A stretch of 34,531 bases of DNA from the IMG/VR virus record IMGVR_UViG_3300027932_000003, positions 1 through 34,531 of that record; one strand, given 5' to 3'. The stretch comes from a virus. The notes below the pieces were generated by a model. It ran no database searches. It saw only the letters and a program-made list of their open reading frames with translations, and was not told the DNA's origin. This document shows positions 4,285 through 34,531 of the stretch, piece by piece. The first letter of the stretch is position 1; each line of letters starts with the position of its first letter. The position numbers and the translations under genes were made by a program.

Positions 4285-4476
4285 TTATTTTAATTCTCTA
4301 ATTAAATCTTCTATCTCATAAATAATATCTTCTATTTTTTCAATTTTTTCTTTTTCAAATTCATGTTCTTCATAGTTCTCAATAAGTTTCATACTTTCTT
4401 CTAGTTTTTCTTTTGCATTTTGTAATTCTGTAATTGCAGATTCTAAAGCTGATATTATTTCATTGTAATCTATCAT
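4285..4476 (-). CDS. hypothetical acidic coiled-coil protein (63 aa)
   Basis: ATG ORF with aagaggtg upstream; last gene of a leftward gene string. Confidence 0.45.
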   Translation of the reverse strand: MIDYNEIISALESAITELQNAKEKLEESMKLIENYEEHEFEKEKIEKIEDIIYEIEDLIRELK

Positions 4477-4479
4477 TTT

Positions 4480-4746
4480 TTACACCTCTTTTATTCTTTT
4501 CCAAACCTTTCCAATTGTTACACTTATATCAATTGACATTACAGAAAACCAAATTTCAAAATTTAATAGTTTATTGTTAATTTCTAAATAGCCAGCAATT
4601 TTATTTTTATTTTTTGTATAAAATATTATTCTTGGTTTTTCGTTAAAAATAAAAGCTTTATTTAGTAGATTTAAAATATCTTCTTCTCTCATATTTTCAA
4701 TTTTGTTTTTTGTTTTTTCCATTTGCTCCAAAAATTTTTCACTCAT
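4480..4746 (-). CDS. hypothetical protein (88 aa)
   Basis: ATG ORF; own promoter tttttatatGTCATAtaatac on the minus strand at about 4765..4790. Confidence 0.5.
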   Translation of the reverse strand: MSEKFLEQMEKTKNKIENMREEDILNLLNKAFIFNEKPRIIFYTKNKNKIAGYLEINNKLLNFEIWFSVMSIDISVTIGKVWKRIKEV

Positions 4747-4798
4747 GTTTTCACAATTACTGTTGTATTATATGACATATAAAAAGATTTTTATTTTT

Positions 4799-5416
4799 TC
4801 AGAATAAAGAGCCAAAACATTTCGCTTTAAACTCACAGGCTTTACATAGATAATTATTCGCGCCAGGTATAGTTTTATAATCTTGTAATTTCATAAATTC
4901 TTTAAATTTCTTAATCCAGTCAATTGCTTTTTGCAGATATGTTCCAATTATAGTTTTATTTATTTGGAATTGTTTAACTTCTTTATTTATTCTATTTAAA
5001 TATATGATATAGACATTATCAATTTTATAGTTTTGTTGTTGTAATAAGTAATAGTAAATTGAGACTTGGTAAAGATGATATTCTTTGATATTAAAGTAAT
5101 TACTTGTGATAGTTTTTAGTTCTATAAGATCATTATTGCAAATTAAGTCAATTCTGCCTGATATTTTTAATCCTTCAATTTCGCCTTTTACTTCAACTTC
5201 AGATTTACAGCCTAGTTTTTCGACAAAATAATTTTCTATTCTCTCGTGATGTTGTTCTCCTAGGTCAAGGCTAATTTCATTTACTGCTTTCTCAAACTCA
5301 AATTTTCTACTAAAATAGCTTTTTCTAAAGCAAATTCCAATTTCGCTAGGAAATATTGTATTCTCTGGATATTTCATTTTGAAGCTTTGTTTTACAAATT
5401 CTTCATAATTTGTCAT
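4799..5416 (-). CDS. Cas4-like / RecB-family nuclease (205 aa)
   Basis: GRIDLI (motif II), IELK (motif III), [11 protein letters not shown] (QxxxY) and C-terminal C-x2-C-x5-C ([10 protein letters not shown]) plus an N-terminal Cys; aggtgg upstream of the ATG; follows the ATPase gene, as in the conserved rudivirus SSB-helicase-nuclease operon. Confidence 0.7.
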
Positions 5417-5418
5417 TT

Positions 5419-6726
5419 TTAACCACCTAAATTACTAAATCTCATTAAGTTTATTATTCTATTACAAATTTCTTCATTTTGTACTTTTCCAATTTGTAAA
5501 TCTATGTCTAATGCCTGTAATAGAATTTGAATATCGATACTTTGCTCTTGTCTTCTGGATTCTAAATTTTCGCAATTTACATAGTTATGAATACTATTTA
5601 TCTTCTGTTGAATTAATTCAATTAATGCTTTTAAAATTGAAGGATAAAGAACTCTTGCATTTATAATTTTATCGTAAGTTTTCTTAATTGCTAATTGAAT
5701 AATATGAATTCTATCTAATATTGCAGAAGTGAAAATTTCATAATTTTGTAGATAGTCTTCTAAATCTGGAGTTACTAATTTATTAATTGTATATGCATAT
5801 GGATTTCCAGCGTAAATAATTGGAATACATTTTTGTATAGTTGCTGATTTTGATTCTGTTCCAGCTCCTCTTGTCCAAATACAATTTTCAATTCCAGTTG
5901 ATAGAGTTGAATTTATAGTATTTAGTTCTTTTGTTGAAAAACCATCTTTCCAATTTTGAATTTCATCAAATATCAAACCGTTTGATAGAAATACAGCTCC
6001 ATACATATTGTTTCGAGCATCATATACCAAATTGGCATAAGTTGGAGCTTCCGTGTAATATCTAAAATTGAAAACTTCTTGTAAAATCATGAAAGTTGTA
6101 GTTTTTCCAGTTCCTCTATTAGAAATTTCAATATAATTTATTTGTCTTTTGGTAATTGGAGATTTGAAAAGTGGGAATAGTCTTGGAAGAAAGAGAAATA
6201 TATCATTTATTTCCATTTTAGTCGGGTCATATCCAAAACTTTGCAATAAAAGTGCATAAGTTGAATATTCTGAATTTGCTAATTCAAATAATTCTTTTGC
6301 AATTTCATAATTGTTGGGTGGCTCAATTGAATAAATATCATAAATACGCCAACCTTCTATACCTTTTCTAATTTTGACAAACATGTAACTTGTAATTAAA
6401 TTATAGAAATTTTCAGGATTATCAGCTATAAAATGTGGATCGAAATTTGCAGTAAAACCATTTTGAAATTTTGCTATAACTTCATCATCTTTTACTTTAA
6501 ACTGTATAATTTTAGAGATAAATTTCACTTCATCATTAAAAAGCAAATAAGATTGAAAATATTGTTGATCAATTCCGCGTTTGTAAGCTTTTAAAATTTC
6601 AATTTTCTTCCTTTCTTCAATTTGTTTTCCAGAGAGAATTATATTTAAAACTCTTTCTGTATCTCTTGGATTATAAAAAAAAGAATGAGATTTTATTTTT
6701 TCAAGAAGTTGATTTGAACTACTCAT
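5419..6726 (-). CDS. P-loop ATPase, putative helicase (435 aa)
   Basis: Walker A NRGTGKTT; size and position between the SSB-like and nuclease genes. Confidence 0.7.
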
Positions 6727-6751
6727 AAAAAAAATGATAACTTATGACGTT

Positions 6752-7165
6752 TTAAAATTCGTCTTCAACATTCTTTTTCTCTTTCTTTTTCTGTGTTTTT
6801 TCCTCCTTTTGGCTTGATTTTTGTTTTTCTTCTTCTTCTTCTGTGTCTATTTCTTCTTCTTGAACAGCATTATTATTCCTTGGCGTAAATTTTACATATT
6901 CGTTTAATAAGTCAGCATATTTATTTAAGAATTCTGAAATTAATCTTAAATCTTCAGCATCATTTGCGGTTATTCCAAGTTGTTTTCTAAAATTATTAGC
7001 AGAATGGATAGTCATTGAGTATCTAACTTTTCCGTCTTGTGGTATTGCATTTAACTGTACAACTATTCTTTTTAGACCTTTGATTTTTAAAATTCTACTG
7101 GCTATTTTATTATTTTCTTTAGCTTGTTTACCTAACTCATCTATTATTTCCTTCAAACTTGCCAT
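6752..7165 (-). CDS. putative ssDNA-binding protein with acidic C-terminal tail (137 aa)
   Basis: Acidic tail EEEIDTEEEEE; first gene of the leftward operon; promoter aaatatGTCATAttataag on the minus strand at about 7184..7208. Function inferred from operon context, not from a motif. Confidence 0.5.
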   Translation of the reverse strand: MASLKEIIDELGKQAKENNKIASRILKIKGLKRIVVQLNAIPQDGKVRYSMTIHSANNFRKQLGITANDAEDLRLISEFLNKYADLLNEYVKFTPRNNNAVQEEEIDTEEEEEKQKSSQKEEKTQKKKEKKNVEDEF

Positions 7166-7265
7166 CTTTTTCGCCTTATTAATAACTTATAATATGACAT
7201 ATTTATATATTTATAAAAGTACAAGCCATGATATTTAGAAGTTTAAAAAAAGATGAAAAAAATAT

Positions 7266-7538
7266 TTAAATTAACTTAAAGAATATAGATCTTATTAATT
7301 TAGATACTTTCATATTATATTTATTTGCTAATTCTTCAAGTTTTTGATAATATAATTCATCAATTGTGAAAAAAACACGCTCATCATAAATTTCACTGAT
7401 TTCAATTTCTTTAAATTCTTTTTGAGAATTTAGAATTTTATCTATTTCTTGTTTTATTGTCTCTCTTTTCTCATAAAAAAGATTTTTATACTTTGATGGT
7501 ATACGTAATTCGATATACTTATTTCTTTGCTTTTTCAT
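7266..7538 (-). CDS. hypothetical protein, possible ribbon-helix-helix fold (90 aa)
   Basis: C-terminal half RVFFTIDELYYQKLEELANKYNMKVSKLIRSIF fits a strand-helix-turn-helix (RHH) pattern; divergent from Rep across a shared 70-bp promoter region. Confidence 0.4.
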   Translation of the reverse strand: MKKQRNKYIELRIPSKYKNLFYEKRETIKQEIDKILNSQKEFKEIEISEIYDERVFFTIDELYYQKLEELANKYNMKVSKLIRSIFFKLI

Positions 7539-7609: not shown

Positions 7610-7954
7610 GTGAACGGTAAAAAAGTTTTTAGCTATCATTTTCTTTATGTTTACACGTATTTTATTACTATTGCTACAAATTATCACTATAATGATACGA
7701 CAAAAATCTATAAAAAATTCAGACAATATATTTATAATCATGATAAAAATTCTCATATTTTTTCAGTAAAAGAATATACAACAAGATTACATGGTCTACA
7801 TTATCATGTTTTAGTTTTCACGAATAAAAGGCTTGACTATTCCAGAGTTCATAAGCAAATGCCAAAACATTCAGATATAAATATTCAATTAGTTCCAAAA
7901 ACAAAAAATGATATAAAAAAAGTTTTAACTTATATGTTAAAAAATCAAAAATAA
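7610..7954 (+). CDS. HUH-superfamily rolling-circle replication initiator Rep (114 aa)
   Basis: LHGLHYHVLVF (HUH motif: H-hydrophobic-H followed by hydrophobics) and VLTYMLK (YxxK, Tyr at residue 108 by my count). The frame has no ATG before residue 84, so the start is GTG at 7610, right at the expected leaderless position. Confidence 0.75.
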   Translation: MNGKKVFSYHFLYVYTYFITIATNYHYNDTTKIYKKFRQYIYNHDKNSHIFSVKEYTTRLHGLHYHVLVFTNKRLDYSRVHKQMPKHSDINIQLVPKTKNDIKKVLTYMLKNQK

Positions 7955-8243: not shown

Positions 8244-8341
8244 TTCAATTTTATTATATGCAAATTACTTAGTAATAAAGTTTATGCAAAAAATCGAAAT
8301 ATATAAATATGTCATAATGTATGTTTATAAAATGAGGAAAA

Positions 8342-8503
8342 ATGATGGAGAAAGTTAAAAAGGAAAGAACAGTTTTCGGTATAAATATAGATAAAGAATT
8401 AAAAAGAAAATTAAAAGTATATTGTGCAAATAATAATATCACGCTAACAGAAGCAATTGAAGAAGCTTTAGAAGAATATTTACAGAAAAGGGGAACTAAA
8501 TGA
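8342..8503 (+). CDS. ribbon-helix-helix (CopG/Arc-like) DNA-binding protein (53 aa)
   Basis: Hand-translated: [53 protein letters not shown]; promoter atataaataTGTCATAat at 8301..8318; missed by the ORF track. Confidence 0.55.
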
Positions 8504-8646
8504 GAGTAATAACGTTTAAAGTTGAAGAAGATCTTTTGCAAAAACTTGATAAATATGCTATGAATCACAAGCTAAACAGATCTGAAGTAATTAGGCAAGC
8601 ATTAATGGAATTCTTGAGACCAAATACTACAACATATGATAGTTAA
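8500..8646 (+). CDS. ribbon-helix-helix DNA-binding protein (48 aa)
   Basis: Hand-translated: [48 protein letters not shown]; textbook RHH pattern; ATG overlaps the stop of the upstream RHH gene (ATGA). Confidence 0.55.
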
Positions 8647-16608: not shown

Positions 16609-16680
16609 ATATCATCAATATAAAAATTTTTATATGACAAATTTAAACATATATATGTCATAATTTTTAAGTTTAATTTG

Positions 16681-20797: not shown

Positions 20798-20828
20798 ATA
20801 AATTTGTCATATTTTTTAGTTTTTACAC

Positions 20829-24953: not shown

Positions 24954-25883
24954 TTAGGAACTAATAACTTCAAATAATGCATAAACTGTACATTTTCCAG
25001 TTGCCCAGGCATAAATATTTGAAGGATTATTTACATGAATTTCTATTGAATCATTTTGTAAAATCGGGAAGTTATTATATAGATTATTGCCAATATAAAC
25101 GATATAATTACTGAGATTTTGGAGAATTATTCTTACAGTTTCTATGGATGGGCCTGTGTACAAAGGTGAAGGAGTAGTAGAAACATCTAATTGTAGACCT
25201 TCTATAGTTGGTGGACTTAAGTATAAACCAAGTTTATTAATTGTATTTGTCAAACCGACAGTTGCTAAATATACATATGTCAAAGTATAAGCTAAAGAAT
25301 CAGCAACAAAATAAATAGCACTTTGTAACGAAATTCCTAATCTCTTAGCTATTGAATTTATAGTTTCATAAAATGAAATATAGAAATTCTGTAAATCTTC
25401 TTTTATAATTGTCCTAGATTGTTCAATATTTGAAATTAAATAATTAACAACATTATAAATTGTTTCATATAGAGCAATTGTATCTTTCTCTAAAATTGAA
25501 GTGGCAGTCGGAACGGCAACTACAATTTTTTCATAAATTTCTTCTGGTAATTTAACAATTGAATAATAAAGTTGTTGATTTGAGTATAATATTGAATTTA
25601 TTTGTTGATTTGCAGTTGCTATAAAACCTGCAATGTATATTGGATCAAGTTCAGTTAGCACAGGCTGACCAGAAACGTAAACCTCATCATAGAAAAATCC
25701 AGAATCTGCAGTAATTGAATTTGGAACTGTAAGATTACCGTTTTTCAAAATTGAAGTAACTGCATTTCCGCCAGTTTCATAAAGCTGAATTAGCAAAAGT
25801 GATGCAGTATTCCACATTGAAGATGTTAATCTCTGAAACGGTGACGCAAGTAATTCGCTAATTGAAGTATATGTAACGCTCAT
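24954..25883 (-). CDS. hypothetical protein (309 aa)
   Basis: ATG ORF; no motif recognised. Confidence 0.6.
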   Translation of the reverse strand: MSVTYTSISELLASPFQRLTSSMWNTASLLLIQLYETGGNAVTSILKNGNLTVPNSITADSGFFYDEVYVSGQPVLTELDPIYIAGFIATANQQINSILYSNQQLYYSIVKLPEEIYEKIVVAVPTATSILEKDTIALYETIYNVVNYLISNIEQSRTIIKEDLQNFYISFYETINSIAKRLGISLQSAIYFVADSLAYTLTYVYLATVGLTNTINKLGLYLSPPTIEGLQLDVSTTPSPLYTGPSIETVRIILQNLSNYIVYIGNNLYNNFPILQNDSIEIHVNNPSNIYAWATGKCTVYALFEVISS

Positions 25884-26014
25884 ACTATTTTTATCCCATC
25901 ATGACCTAAAAAACTATTCACAACTAATTCATAATATTATGAATATAGCATGTCCTCATTGATCTCATCAGAAACCAAGATAACTAATATTTGTCATAAC
26001 TTGAGAAGAATATT

Positions 26015-26729: not shown

Positions 26730-27812
26730 ATGAGTGGTGATATTTTATTGCAAACTCCAATTTATTACGTTTATCCACAACATCATGATGTTTCTTTTAA
26801 GTTTGTAGCAAAAGAACATATAAAAATGCTAAAAGAAAAATATACAGTTTACGAAATTCCTGCTTTATCATTTTATCAATTTACTCCTTTCAAATATCCA
26901 ATTTCAATTATTCATCCATTCTTTTATTCAATGTGGCATTGGGGTAACGTTGAATTTTCATTCTTTGAACAATATAGATCTAAAGTTAGTCAAATAATAG
27001 GAGTTGAAGTAGCTGACAGTGATAGAATTTCAGAAAAATTTATAGATTATGCAAATAATTATGCAGATAGACTAATTGGAAATTCTGAATGGACATTAAA
27101 CGCTTTTAAAAATTCTGGACTAAAAATTCCAATTTTTAAAGTTGTTCATAATTTTAATGAGAGATTATTGGCGAAAAATGATGAATTAAAAGTTGATGAA
27201 CAAGTTAAATATATTGAAAAAGTAAAGAAAGAGAAAAATATAAAACTAGTAATGATATCGCTTTGGCATTCTGATTACAGAAAAGGAGCTGATTTATTTC
27301 ACGTAATTGTAAAAGAAATACAAAAAGAAAGAGATGATATTTATTTTCTAGTCAAATCAGGCGGGCCGAGGACAGATTTTCAAGACCTCAAAATGTTTAA
27401 CCTAACAGGAAATACAGATTTTGATAATATCGTAAAAATGTATAGAATTTCTGACTTGTATTTACTAACTTCAAGAGGCGGAAGTTTTGAATTAAACGGT
27501 TTAGAAGCTTTTGTATCAAAAATTCCAGTTGTAGCAACTAAAGGAGGAGCATGGCAAGAGTATTTTCCTTCACAATTGAAAGATTTATTAATTGATAGTT
27601 GTGATTATCCAACAGTTTTACCAGGAAATCCAATTCATATAGGAAAAGGAGTGGAAATGTGCATAAATGACGCTATAGATAAAATATTAGAAGTTTTAGA
27701 TAAATTAGATGAATATAAGGCAAAAATTGAGGAGAACTATAATTTTTGGCTAGAAAATTTTAGTTATGAAACTGTAAAAAAACAATTGTTTAACACATTA
27801 GAAAAATCTTAA
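26730..27812 (+). CDS. putative GT-B glycosyltransferase (360 aa)
   Basis: TSRGGSFELNGLEAFVSKIPVVAT resembles the C-terminal sugar-donor region of GT4 enzymes; aaggacgtggt upstream of the ATG. Confidence 0.55.
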   Translation: MSGDILLQTPIYYVYPQHHDVSFKFVAKEHIKMLKEKYTVYEIPALSFYQFTPFKYPISIIHPFFYSMWHWGNVEFSFFEQYRSKVSQIIGVEVADSDRISEKFIDYANNYADRLIGNSEWTLNAFKNSGLKIPIFKVVHNFNERLLAKNDELKVDEQVKYIEKVKKEKNIKLVMISLWHSDYRKGADLFHVIVKEIQKERDDIYFLVKSGGPRTDFQDLKMFNLTGNTDFDNIVKMYRISDLYLLTSRGGSFELNGLEAFVSKIPVVATKGGAWQEYFPSQLKDLLIDSCDYPTVLPGNPIHIGKGVEMCINDAIDKILEVLDKLDEYKAKIEENYNFWLENFSYETVKKQLFNTLEKS

Positions 27813-27838
27813 ATTGGTCATAAAACTCAAACTGTAAC

Positions 27839-32966: not shown

Positions 32967-32992
32967 CTTTTTCACCATTATCTATTATCTCT

Positions 32993-34531
32993 AAACTCAT
33001 ATTTAAATCTTTCTCTACCTTTTCATGTCTTCATTTTTCGACTTATAATTATGTTATTTTTGATGATCATTATATTTTCTTTCATAAATGACTTTCCCAT
33101 GAATTTTTAATACACCAGTTCTATCAAATTCAGCTAACGCATTCAAATACTCCTTGTAAGCTTTGATAATATAATCTATTCTATTATGCATTCTTTCTAA
33201 AATTTTTTTCTGCTCAGCAGTTAATTTATGTACTCTTGTCATTTTTTATCATCTACAAATCATCATATATTATATGACGAATATAAAACATTCTCTATCT
33301 CCTTAACTCTTATCGCCACCTCTCTCTATAGAGAACGTGTAAATTCTGTCTCTCCAATTTCTCTCATAACACCAAACATAAATTGTTTCCTAACGGTGAA
33401 AAATCCTAAAAAAACCTATTTTAGGTTTGACTATAATTTATTAATTATAAACTACTAACTACATAACTATATAATTATTATATTGAATAACTAGATAGTT
33501 TCCATATTCTCTAAATTATTAAATCTCCTTACAATTTTTACCATAAAATACTGATATAAATCCAAACTGTATACAGAATCTTCTATTGAATTGAAAGAAA
33601 AAAAGAAACTATATTTTACACTTGAACTACAAAACTATAATTATTATATTATAAACTACTAATTAGTAGTTAGCTAATTATATAATTATATAACTTCATA
33701 ATTATATAATTATCTAATTTAAATGTTAATAATAATATATATAAAAAAATAATAATAAGAAGAAAGATAATGCCCACTAACAATACTAAATGCTTTCTTC
33801 TGGTATATAAACTTTTCTTTCTAAACTTCCAATTTCTCCAACACTAAACGCAAAAAACTAACAACACATAACGATTTGAATAAATATAACAAATTAACAA
33901 TATGTTTAGTATCTTTCTAACTTTAAATTGAGGTTTTGGTTTGCTAGAATTAAGAAATTAAATAAATTATGAATATGTTTAGTAACTAAAAACTTTAAAT
34001 TGTGGGTTTGGTTCCCTCCAAATTATAAATTATAATATTATAGTTAGTAGTTATTAATATCCACAAATTAACATTTATTACAAATTTCCAAAGTTTGAAT
34101 TTGCAAATTTTATATTACAAATTTCACTAAATGACAGATTAATTGTAATTTAGGAATTTAGAAAATTAGTATTTTTTATCATAGTTGAAAAATTATTTGG
34201 AAATGTAGAATTATTTGGAATTTAGGAATTTCCAATTTTTTAACTTTTTTGCAGAAAATGATAGATTATTTCAAATTTAGGAAATTAGGAATTTACAATT
34301 TTTCTCATTTTTTGCACAATTTACGCAAAATGACAGATTAATTGGAATTTTGGAAGTTTGAATTTTTTGCACCGCTCCAATTATTATTTGGAGGTGTAGA
34401 ATTAATTGGAATTTCCAATTTATTGCGAAAGTTGGGAAATTTGCGAAAAAAACGAAAAAAACGAAAGAAATTGGAATTTTCAATTTTTTGCATTAGTTGT
34501 GAAATTTTCGCAGAAAATGAAAAAAACTACA
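32993..34531. repeat. Right inverted terminal repeat (ITR)
   Basis: Mirror copy of 1..1539; the window ends with the reverse complement of its first bases. Confidence 0.85.
33054..33242 (-). CDS. ITR-encoded hypothetical protein (62 aa), right copy
   Basis: Identical translation to 1290..1478; mirrored promoter. Confidence 0.5.
   Translation of the reverse strand: MTRVHKLTAEQKKILERMHNRIDYIIKAYKEYLNALAEFDRTGVLKIHGKVIYERKYNDHQK

Follow-up and report, generated by a model that had tools for sequence, protein, structure and literature searches.

A gp17-gp18-gp19-type module for single-stranded DNA processing predicted in a SIRV-like rudivirus genome

The conserved rudiviral module

The DNA analysed here is the virus record IMGVR_UViG_3300027932_000003 of IMG/VR, positions 1 to 34,531 (the window, 34,531 nt in all), and our subject is a group of three adjacent minus-strand genes that occupies positions 4,799 to 7,165. 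Judged by sequence comparison, these genes are a conserved rudiviral module for processing single-stranded DNA (ssDNA), orthologous to gp17-gp18-gp19 of SIRV2, and code for a single-stranded DNA-binding protein (SSB), an AAA+ ATPase and a Cas4-like nuclease.

6752-7165, minus strand: SSB gene, 137 aa
5419-6726, minus strand: ATPase gene, 435 aa
4799-5416, minus strand: nuclease gene, 205 aa

Both the module and the biochemistry of its orthologues are already published, and the finding is therefore a known one. The SIRV genes are the 'conserved archaeal viral operon' of Guo et al. 2015 (as described in PMC5062984, PMC7826561 and PMC8093625), and the novelty implied by an original prediction, made from the sequence alone, is absent; this is a textbook rudiviral core module. 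The value of the present analysis lies in correct annotation, in that the window is a complete Yellowstone-type SIRV-like rudivirus with the predicted core ssDNA-binding, annealing and nuclease functions.

Several observations carry this identification. First, the SSB, ATPase and nuclease are 73%, 79% and 66% identical to SIRV2 gp17, gp18 and gp19, respectively, over their full lengths (BLASTP, E 4e-70 to 0), with the aligned SIRV2 region comprising gp17 (ORF131b), gp18 (ORF436) and gp19 (ORF207). The aligned SIRV3 genes are annotated as ssDNA binding protein; as ATPase, ssDNA annealing activity; and as Cas4-like protein, endonuclease and 5'-3' exonuclease. Secondly, the three proteins match PHROG families 7201, 6542 and 1706, with E from 6e-63 (the nuclease, to PHROG 1706) to 8e-246. 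Thirdly, dN/dS relative to SIRV8 and SIRV2 is 0.08-0.17 across all three genes (0.08-0.13 for the SSB), and orthologues of the region are present in 40 rudivirus records. These low ratios and the wide occurrence of orthologues, together with Pfam matches above gathering thresholds, indicate that the three open reading frames (ORFs) are real and not due to chance. Plus-strand ORFs of 41-53 aa within the region were judged to be chance occurrences, having neither a promoter-like element nor a family match and lying opposite frames under strong purifying selection. The gene arrangement is exactly as originally predicted, and the ORF list gives spacers of 25 nt between the SSB and ATPase genes (6727-6751) and of 2 nt between the ATPase and nuclease genes (5417-5418).

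The window is a linear genome of 34,531 bp with ~25% G+C and perfect 1,556-bp inverted terminal repeats (ITRs). Its closest relative is SIRV8 (Yellowstone), with 89% nucleotide identity over 85% of the window's first 25 kb, and its remaining nucleotide matches are to Rudiviridae throughout. Because of the perfect ITRs and the Rudiviridae matches, we take the window to be the entire genome of a SIRV-like (Usarudivirus-type) rudivirus. Hot-spring metagenome contigs encode proteins with 100% identity to the ATPase. A search of the whole viral genome for CRISPR-like arrays returned only the ITR repeats and no cas neighbours were found, and an Rfam scan of the entire window gave zero families at gathering threshold, so that the region is not explained by structured RNA.

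Synteny of the module is shared with SIRV8, SIRV2, SIRV3, SIRV1 and SBRV1, and the order RHH-SSB-ATPase-Cas4 is kept across Usa-, Ice- and Japarudivirus. The adjacency of the ATPase and Cas4-like genes is kept in every genus sampled, and is the sole invariant adjacency of the module. The position of the SSB gene varies: in SRV the homologue is on the opposite strand (5390-5806, plus strand), in ARV1 it lies three small genes from the ATPase (5198-5602, minus strand), and in the Hoswirudivirus genomes (the SSRV1, ARV3 and MRV1 set) an extra gene of 84-90 aa is found between the SSB and ATPase genes.

The single-stranded DNA-binding protein

The SSB-like label given originally to the 137-aa protein is upheld by its 73% identity to gp17, by a match to Pfam PF21017 (E 1.2e-54, above the gathering threshold), and by the match of residues 1-96 (nt 6878-7165) to the SIRV1 ORF131 crystal structures 2X5G, 2X5H and 2X5T (E ~1e-50); an NCBIfam scan returned no match for either the SSB or the nuclease. 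By these comparisons it is a gp17-type non-canonical ssDNA-binding protein, the ortholog of SIRV2 gp17 and SIRV1 ORF131. SIRV2 gp17 has been shown experimentally to be a non-canonical ssDNA-binding protein (PMC5062984 and PMC7826561, citing Guo et al. 2015). Residues 1-96 are its folded N-terminal domain, and the remaining residues, 97-137, form a charged and presumably disordered tail with 15 acidic and 9 basic residues that ends in VEDEF, and the terminal (D/E)E(F/L) is retained even in distant rudiviruses, as seen from translation of the sequence upstream of the next gene.

The Cas4-like nuclease

The 205-aa protein was originally predicted to have RecB motifs and the C-x2-C-x5-C cluster of Cas4, and all of these are present.

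5330-5332, minus strand: N-terminal Cys, C29
5147-5149, minus strand: D90 of RecB motif II, GRID (G87-R-I-D90)
Residues 96-101, minus strand: motif III, D96/E99/K101 (E99-L-K101)
Residues 117-121, minus strand: QhxxY motif, Q117..Y121
4817-4846, minus strand: C191-x2-C194-x5-C200

When the orthologues of 11 rudiviruses are aligned, neither the four cysteines nor any residue of the RecB motifs varies, which speaks against the possibility, raised at the outset, that the catalytic residues might be lacking on alignment. The cysteines are placed as has been described for Cas4 and gp19 (PMC3466216). The Pfam models PDDEXK_1 (37.6 bits against a cut-off of 22, 3e-9) and Cas_Cas4 (28.8 against 22.7, 1.5e-6) both match, as do the PADLOC Cas4 models (2.4e-14 over residues 28-200). 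A single-sequence phmmer search against the PDB gave nothing meaningful, and the structural link came from the family profile alone: the profile of the 11 rudiviral orthologues matches Cas4 SSO0001 (4IC1) at E 5e-7, with the N-terminal Cys, the His, GRxD, ExK and Q..Y in register. We therefore classify the protein, by sequence, as a Cas4-family PD-(D/E)xK nuclease of the gp19 type, with its catalytic residues and four candidate Fe-S cysteines intact.

The right label is 'Cas4-like' and not 'Cas4', because the gene lies in a complete viral genome with neither cas neighbours nor a CRISPR array; it belongs with the viral or solo Cas4-like group (bioRxiv 10.1101/486738). SIRV2 gp19 has been shown to be a Mg-dependent, ssDNA-specific nuclease whose activity is abolished by replacing the motif II Asp with Ala (D89A; PMC3158340), and the mutagenic primer of Gardner et al. 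places this Asp in the GRID motif, corresponding to D90 here (PMC3158340). The gp19 protein has been reported as both an ssDNA endonuclease, active on ssDNA circles, and a 5'->3' exonuclease.

The AAA+ ATPase

The 435-aa protein consists of an N-terminal domain (~aa 1-190) and an AAA+ core, and the chain stops after the AAA+ lid. The P-loop ATPase label is borne out by the presence of the following motifs.

6097-6114, minus strand: Walker A, GTGKTT, aa 205-210
5956-5973, minus strand: Walker B, IFDEIQ, aa 252-257
Residues 305-309, minus strand: sensor-1, YAGNP, with N308
5704-5718, minus strand: Arg-finger, LDRIH, aa 337-341

GTGKTT, IFDEIQ, N308 and LDRIH are invariant or nearly so in 24 homologues, and can be aligned to BrxL; with them the protein has the motif set of AAA+ ATPases of the MCM/MoxR/BchI-like group. 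Both BrxL_N and a BrxL-type AAA+ ATPase domain are recognised in the protein, with a Pfam match to BrxL_ATPase (PF13337) at 9e-15, although the NCBIfam BrxL models score far under their cut-offs (53 against 329 bits, and 28 against 628). Walker B and helicase motifs had been named as tests of the original prediction; the former is there, whereas no Pfam match to superfamily 1 or superfamily 2 (SF1/SF2) helicases was obtained, and the similarity seen in a fold search was MCM-like. A single-sequence phmmer search against the PDB gave nothing meaningful for the ATPase, the link having come only from the fold search. An AlphaFold2 model built with the 24 homologues has a pLDDT of 78 and a pTM of 0.83, with high confidence in the N-terminal domain. 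The family is a small one: when 1.84 billion representatives were searched exhaustively with its profile, only 110 proteins reached E<=1e-3, mostly of 400-470 aa and matching over nearly their full lengths, among which true BrxL proteins appear solely at E 1e-6 to 6e-4.

From the model and the fold search, we describe the protein as an AAA+ ATPase with a predicted BrxL/MCM-like fold, not as an SF1/SF2 helicase. It appears by sequence to be a distant, protease-less homologue of BrxL and neither a BrxL nor a protease, because its scores lie under the cut-offs, the chain ends after the AAA+ lid, and there are no BREX genes in the window. Its SIRV2 orthologue, gp18, anneals complementary ssDNA (PMC5062984, PMC7826561 and PMC8093625, summarising Guo et al. 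2015). In RefSeq (NC_034623, NC_004086 and others) the ATPase is named 'protease' and the nuclease 'CRISPR/Cas system associated'. Both names are carried over from profile names, the ATPase having no protease domain and the virus no CRISPR-Cas system, and the older label 'Lon protease' for the rudiviral ATPase (PMC4124505) is likewise misleading. We also note a distant relative of the ATPase (P0137, 575 aa) in which a C-terminal Gins51_C domain (E 7e-6) follows the BrxL-type ATPase domain, a fusion that hints at a physical connection of this family of ATPases with the CMG/GINS machinery of archaeal replication.

Expression signals

In promoters of SIRV1 and SIRV2 the TATA box is reported to be followed closely by a GTC element (PMC5569661, citing Kessler 2004). 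We searched the window for the motif W7-N-GTCAT, with spacing counted between the G of GTC and the A of ATG and the expectation taken from 100 shuffles. There are 22 copies against 6.8 +/- 2.6 expected, a threefold enrichment that none of the 100 shuffles reached, and 19 of the 22 are followed at 22-38 nt by an ORF start on their own strand. Two classes of spacing are seen, 22-25 nt and 30-38 nt, which may correspond to leaderless and short-leader mRNAs, respectively. The signals in and around the module, followed by examples of the motif copies, are as follows.

7194-7218, minus strand: SSB promoter-like element, TATA box ttttataaatatataaat then GTC (7198-7196); motif copy at 7194-7206
6744-6757, minus strand: internal promoter-like element, TATA-like TTTTAAAA (6757-6750) over the SSB stop codon (6754-6752), then cGTCAT
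6727-6734, minus strand: T8 tract, in the spacer that separates the SSB and ATPase genes
5423-5428, minus strand: Shine-Dalgarno-like aggtgg (GGTG core 5424-5427) inside the last ATPase codons, 7 nt upstream of the nuclease ATG
4772-4785, minus strand: downstream promoter-like element, a T5 run after the nuclease stop, then TATA+GTC (motif 4772-4784)
2455-2467, 4772-4784, 6744-6756, 7194-7206 and 8303-8315: examples of W7-N-GTCAT sites
16634-16661, 20798-20810, 25901-25913, 25985-25997 and 27809-27821: further examples of W7-N-GTCAT sites

The element upstream of the SSB gene is conserved in SIRV8, SIRV2, SIRV1 and SIRV3, and its G of GTC is 33 nt from the ATG at 7165, a spacing that implies a short leader for the SSB mRNA. 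The prediction of one promoter upstream of 7165 is thus correct as to its presence at 7218-7194, but not as to its being the sole promoter, as a second element is found at 6744-6757. In this internal element the box is centred ~27 nt, and the G of GTC lies 22 nt, upstream of the ATPase ATG, a leaderless-type spacing; spacings of 22-25 nt are common to six other promoter-like sites in the window, including those before the ATGs at 25883, 26015 and 27839. SIRV8, SIRV2, SIRV1 and SIRV3 all retain the internal element, a spacer of exactly 25 nt and a T8-T9 tract. Moreover, 11 of 11 rudiviruses have a TATA-like box equally far from the ATPase ATG. Among them are SBRV1, SRV, ARV1, SSRV1, ARV3 and MRV1, in which what comes before the ATPase gene is a non-coding stretch of 100-190 nt, other small genes or, in SRV, an opposite-strand gene. 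Because the position of the box is kept despite the differing upstream genes, the ATPase-nuclease pair probably has, in addition, a second promoter of its own, giving a leaderless ATPase mRNA.

The last SSB codon and stop (TTT TAA, 6752-6757) make up half of the TATA-like TTTTAAAA, and the same site is used in SIRV8, SIRV2, SIRV1 and SIRV3. The conserved C-terminal Phe of the SSB consequently shares its bases with this element, such that the same bases are constrained by both the protein tail and the promoter-like sequence. The placement of the element over the SSB stop codon suggests that the SSB is expressed apart from the ATPase-nuclease pair, and probably at a higher level. The T8 tract may serve the SSB transcript as an oligo-T attenuator or terminator, and may also be where the internal promoter melts; oligo-T termination in archaea is the general basis for the former role.

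The predicted aggtgg sequence before the nuclease ATG is present, and GGTG, GGAGG or GGCGG is found at the corresponding place in most of 11 rudiviruses. It suggests that the nuclease is translated from a polycistronic mRNA, such Shine-Dalgarno elements being typical of internal genes in Sulfolobus operons; the second gene of the unit that follows (ATG 4476) has gaggtg in the same arrangement. The element at 4772-4785 is a putative promoter for the unit containing the gp20 homologue, and the module would end there on its 3' side. Work on SIRV2 regards the promoter of gp17 and that of gp20-gp21 as two distinct 'middle-late' promoters, each of them a binding target of gp21 (PMC9976892).

We also observe a 46-nt inverted repeat with an 80% match between 7167-7212 and 8297-8342. 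The promoter and leader of the SSB gene have nearly the same sequence (AAATATATAAATATGTCATA...) as those of an SvtR-like RHH gene (8342-8503, plus strand), which suggests that the two genes are co-regulated by a common factor.

Proposed function of the module

We consider it probable that the three proteins form a recombination and processing system of exonuclease, annealase and SSB that acts on viral replication intermediates, expressed by the scheme outlined above. The Rep protein would nick the genome and so initiate strand-displacement replication, generating long ssDNA and multimeric 'brush-like' intermediates. The SSB would coat the displaced strands and recruit the ATPase ring, the ATPase would anneal or remodel complementary strands, and the nuclease would resect 5' ends or trim ssDNA flaps. 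Jointly the three could behave as a lambda Red/RecET-like system, promoting replication restart and helping to resolve the intermediates into unit genomes. The disordered C-terminal tail of gp17 reportedly binds gp18, and gp18 is said to bind gp19. SIRV2 replication is described as strand displacement with repeated re-initiation, yielding ssDNA-rich brush-like multimers of up to ~34 genome units (PMC5062984), and the gp17-gp18-gp19 operon has been proposed to function in recombination and/or genome maturation (PMC5062984, PMC7826561 and PMC8093625, on Guo et al. 2015). The role in genome maturation or recombination that was originally suggested for the nuclease agrees with this proposal.

Several considerations weigh against this interpretation. 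All of the function is transferred from orthologues at 66-79% identity, and a literature search did not find in vivo genetic evidence for a role in recombination or maturation. ATP hydrolysis is left unaccounted for, since classical annealases are ATP-independent and yet the AAA+ motifs are strictly conserved. In the AlphaFold2 model the AAA+ core has three conserved loops (234-248, 280-300 and 309-319) with pLDDT <50, and the internal promoter is read from the sequence of a genome with 75% A+T.

The strict conservation of the ATPase site, with BrxL and MCM as the nearest solved folds, means that the role of that site merits re-examination, and a possible though tentative alternative is that the ATPase is a replisome or branch-migration motor. 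It would then form a hexameric, DNA-encircling BrxL/MCM-like ring, with the SSB stabilising the displaced strand and the nuclease acting as a Dna2-like trimmer of 5' flaps. BrxL is an ATP-dependent ring with DNA in its pore, whose resemblance to MCM was remarked on by its authors (PMC10164562), but similarity of AAA+ fold is no proof of unwinding, and BrxL itself is not known to act as a helicase. The Walker A, Walker B, sensor-1 and Arg-finger residues that such a motor would use are invariant in the 24 homologues, and its most conserved loops (235-246 and 280-300) are poorly modelled in the monomer, as pore loops would presumably be. The fusion of P0137 to a GINS51 C-terminal domain and the name given by the SRV annotators to the orthologue, 'putative Holliday junction helicase', point the same way. 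Against this, the published activity of gp18 is ssDNA annealing, with helicase not among the activities reported in the accounts covered, and rudiviruses are thought to recruit host replication factors.

In a related and similarly doubtful proposal, the conserved unit is, in place of the three-gene operon, a two-gene cassette of ATPase and Cas4-like nuclease with its own leaderless promoter, in which the ATPase is a protease-less ring translocase of BrxL/MCM type. It would use ATP hydrolysis to act on the intermediates of viral replication, for instance as a motor for branch migration or unwinding that is coupled to a Dna2-like Fe-S nuclease. If this were true, rudiviruses would carry their own MCM-like motor, and a viral replication and recombination ATPase would be evolutionarily linked to the antiviral BREX factor BrxL.

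The original prediction also raised interference with host CRISPR adaptation, a question already present in the literature for rudiviral Cas4-like proteins. We think it improbable that counter-defence is the main role of the nuclease, in which it would either corrupt the adaptation machinery of the host (Cas4/Csa1-Cas1-Cas2) or act as its competitor, leaving few or defective virus spacers. By profile and motifs it is predicted to be a bona fide Cas4-family member, the CRISPR systems of Sulfolobus hosts are very active, and in S. islandicus overexpressing the fusellovirus SSV2 Cas4 the acquisition of spacers fell to below 1% (bioRxiv 10.1101/486738). However, that effect was shown for SSV2 Cas4 only and not for the rudiviral enzyme, the window has no cas or CRISPR element, and known rudiviral anti-CRISPRs are small accessory genes such as acrID1, represented by SIRV2 gp03 and gp29 (PMC6315595). 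A core gene that is fixed beside the ATPase gene and linked to those for SSB and Rep, and whose product reportedly binds gp18, fits DNA metabolism better than an accessory anti-defence function.

Least probable of all, and in our judgement very doubtful, is the model of Gardner et al. 2011 (PMC3158340) in which the nuclease serves to break down host chromosomal DNA in lytic infection, cutting at ssDNA gaps like T4 endonuclease IV, with the SSB and ATPase only loosely connected: gp19 does cut ssDNA with little sequence specificity and host DNA is degraded upon SIRV2 infection, but the partner nuclease that would make the gaps is not identified in that account (PMC3158340), the annealing activity is left unexplained, and the tight, family-wide coupling of ATPase and nuclease, with the reported binding of gp18 to gp19, points to a dedicated complex on viral intermediates. 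Host-chromosome degradation and interference with CRISPR adaptation are possible extra roles of the nuclease, although they fit its core-gene status and fixed linkage less well than does the recombination and processing system favoured here.

Neighbouring genes and other features

The other features of the genome that bear on the setting of the module are listed below.

1-1556 and 32976-34531: the perfect 1,556-bp inverted terminal repeats
7266-7538, minus strand: 90-aa ORF with its own TATA+GTC box, divergent from the Rep gene and directly upstream of the SSB gene
4480-4746 and 4285-4476, minus strand: gp20 homologue and 63-aa ORF, the next transcription unit beyond the nuclease gene

A Rep homologue of the HUH type, with the motif HYHVLVF and 70% identity to SIRV2 gp16, is encoded at 7610-7954 (plus strand), ~450 bp from the module, and together with the 90-aa ORF and the SSB, ATPase and nuclease genes it makes up a compact replication neighbourhood. 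The SBRV1 counterpart of the 90-aa ORF is annotated as an RHH-domain protein. The 63-aa ORF at 4285-4476 (minus strand) encodes a highly charged, coiled-coil-like protein of PHROG 12444 and occupies the position of SIRV2 gp21, the RHH cell-cycle regulator aCcr1. It is ruled out as gp21/aCcr1 itself, as the gp21 homologue sits at 8500-8646 (plus strand), with 54% identity over 35 aa, where it overlaps the end of the SvtR-like gene. The ITRs hold internal direct repeats spaced ~55-73 nt apart (e.g. 156-403 and 500-653).

Comparison with known systems

The closest counterparts are the modules of SIRV2 and SIRV1 (gp17-gp18-gp19, and ORF131-ORF440-gp12), which have the same gene order and strands, with protein sizes of 137, 435 and 205 aa here compared to 131, 436 and 207 aa in SIRV2. 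The 25-nt spacer between the SSB and ATPase genes, the motifs and the promoter signatures are the same as in SIRV2. The ATPase is up to 96% identical to those of SIRV8, SIRV9 and SIRV10. There are four differences of detail: the SSB tail is 6 aa longer than in the SIRV2 and SIRV1 orthologues; the ATPase and nuclease genes are 2 nt apart here and in SIRV8, whereas SIRV1, SIRV2 and SIRV3 have a 7-nt overlap between them; a 63-aa coiled-coil ORF lies downstream of the gp20 homologue in place of the gp21 of SIRV2; and the RHH gene (7266-7538) is directly upstream of the SSB gene, as in SIRV8 and SBRV1. The renaming of the ATPase and the recognition of a conserved promoter-like element should be useful to those working on rudiviruses, but the overall picture is unchanged.

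BrxL of the BREX systems (PDB 8EMC; PF13337/PF20442; TIGR02688) is a protein of 668 aa with a Lon-protease-like C-terminal domain that the 435-aa viral ATPase does not have. The viral protein is in a replication and recombination setting, with no BREX partner genes in the window, and ssDNA annealing is the published activity of its SIRV2 orthologue.

With CRISPR Cas4 (SSO0001, 4IC1; PF01930) the viral nuclease has in common a RecB-type PD-(D/E)xK core with GRxD, ExK and Q..Y, and one N-terminal Cys plus a C-terminal C-x2-C-x5-C, the predicted equivalent of the four-Cys Fe-S 'staple' arrangement (PMC3466216); the gp19 orthologue and CRISPR Cas4 also both have ssDNA 5'->3' exonuclease activity (PMC3466216). 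The sequence similarity is remote, the family profile reaching only E 5e-7 with 4IC1. CRISPR Cas4 is linked to cas1, cas2 and an array, whereas the viral enzyme is encoded beside an AAA+ ATPase gene, and the endonuclease activity on ssDNA circles reported for gp19 is a further difference.

Lastly, lambda Red Exo/Beta and RecET offer a functional analogy, in which the genes for a PD-(D/E)xK 5'->3' nuclease, an annealing protein and an SSB are neighbours and physical contact among their products has been reported (PMC8093625, PMC5062984). The components are nevertheless distinct. The rudiviral annealase is an AAA+ ATPase unrelated to Red-beta/RecT, ERF, Sak or Sak4, and the SSB is without an OB fold. 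The phage exonucleases act on double-stranded DNA ends, whereas the rudiviral nuclease, a predicted Fe-S enzyme, would by analogy with its orthologue act on ssDNA.

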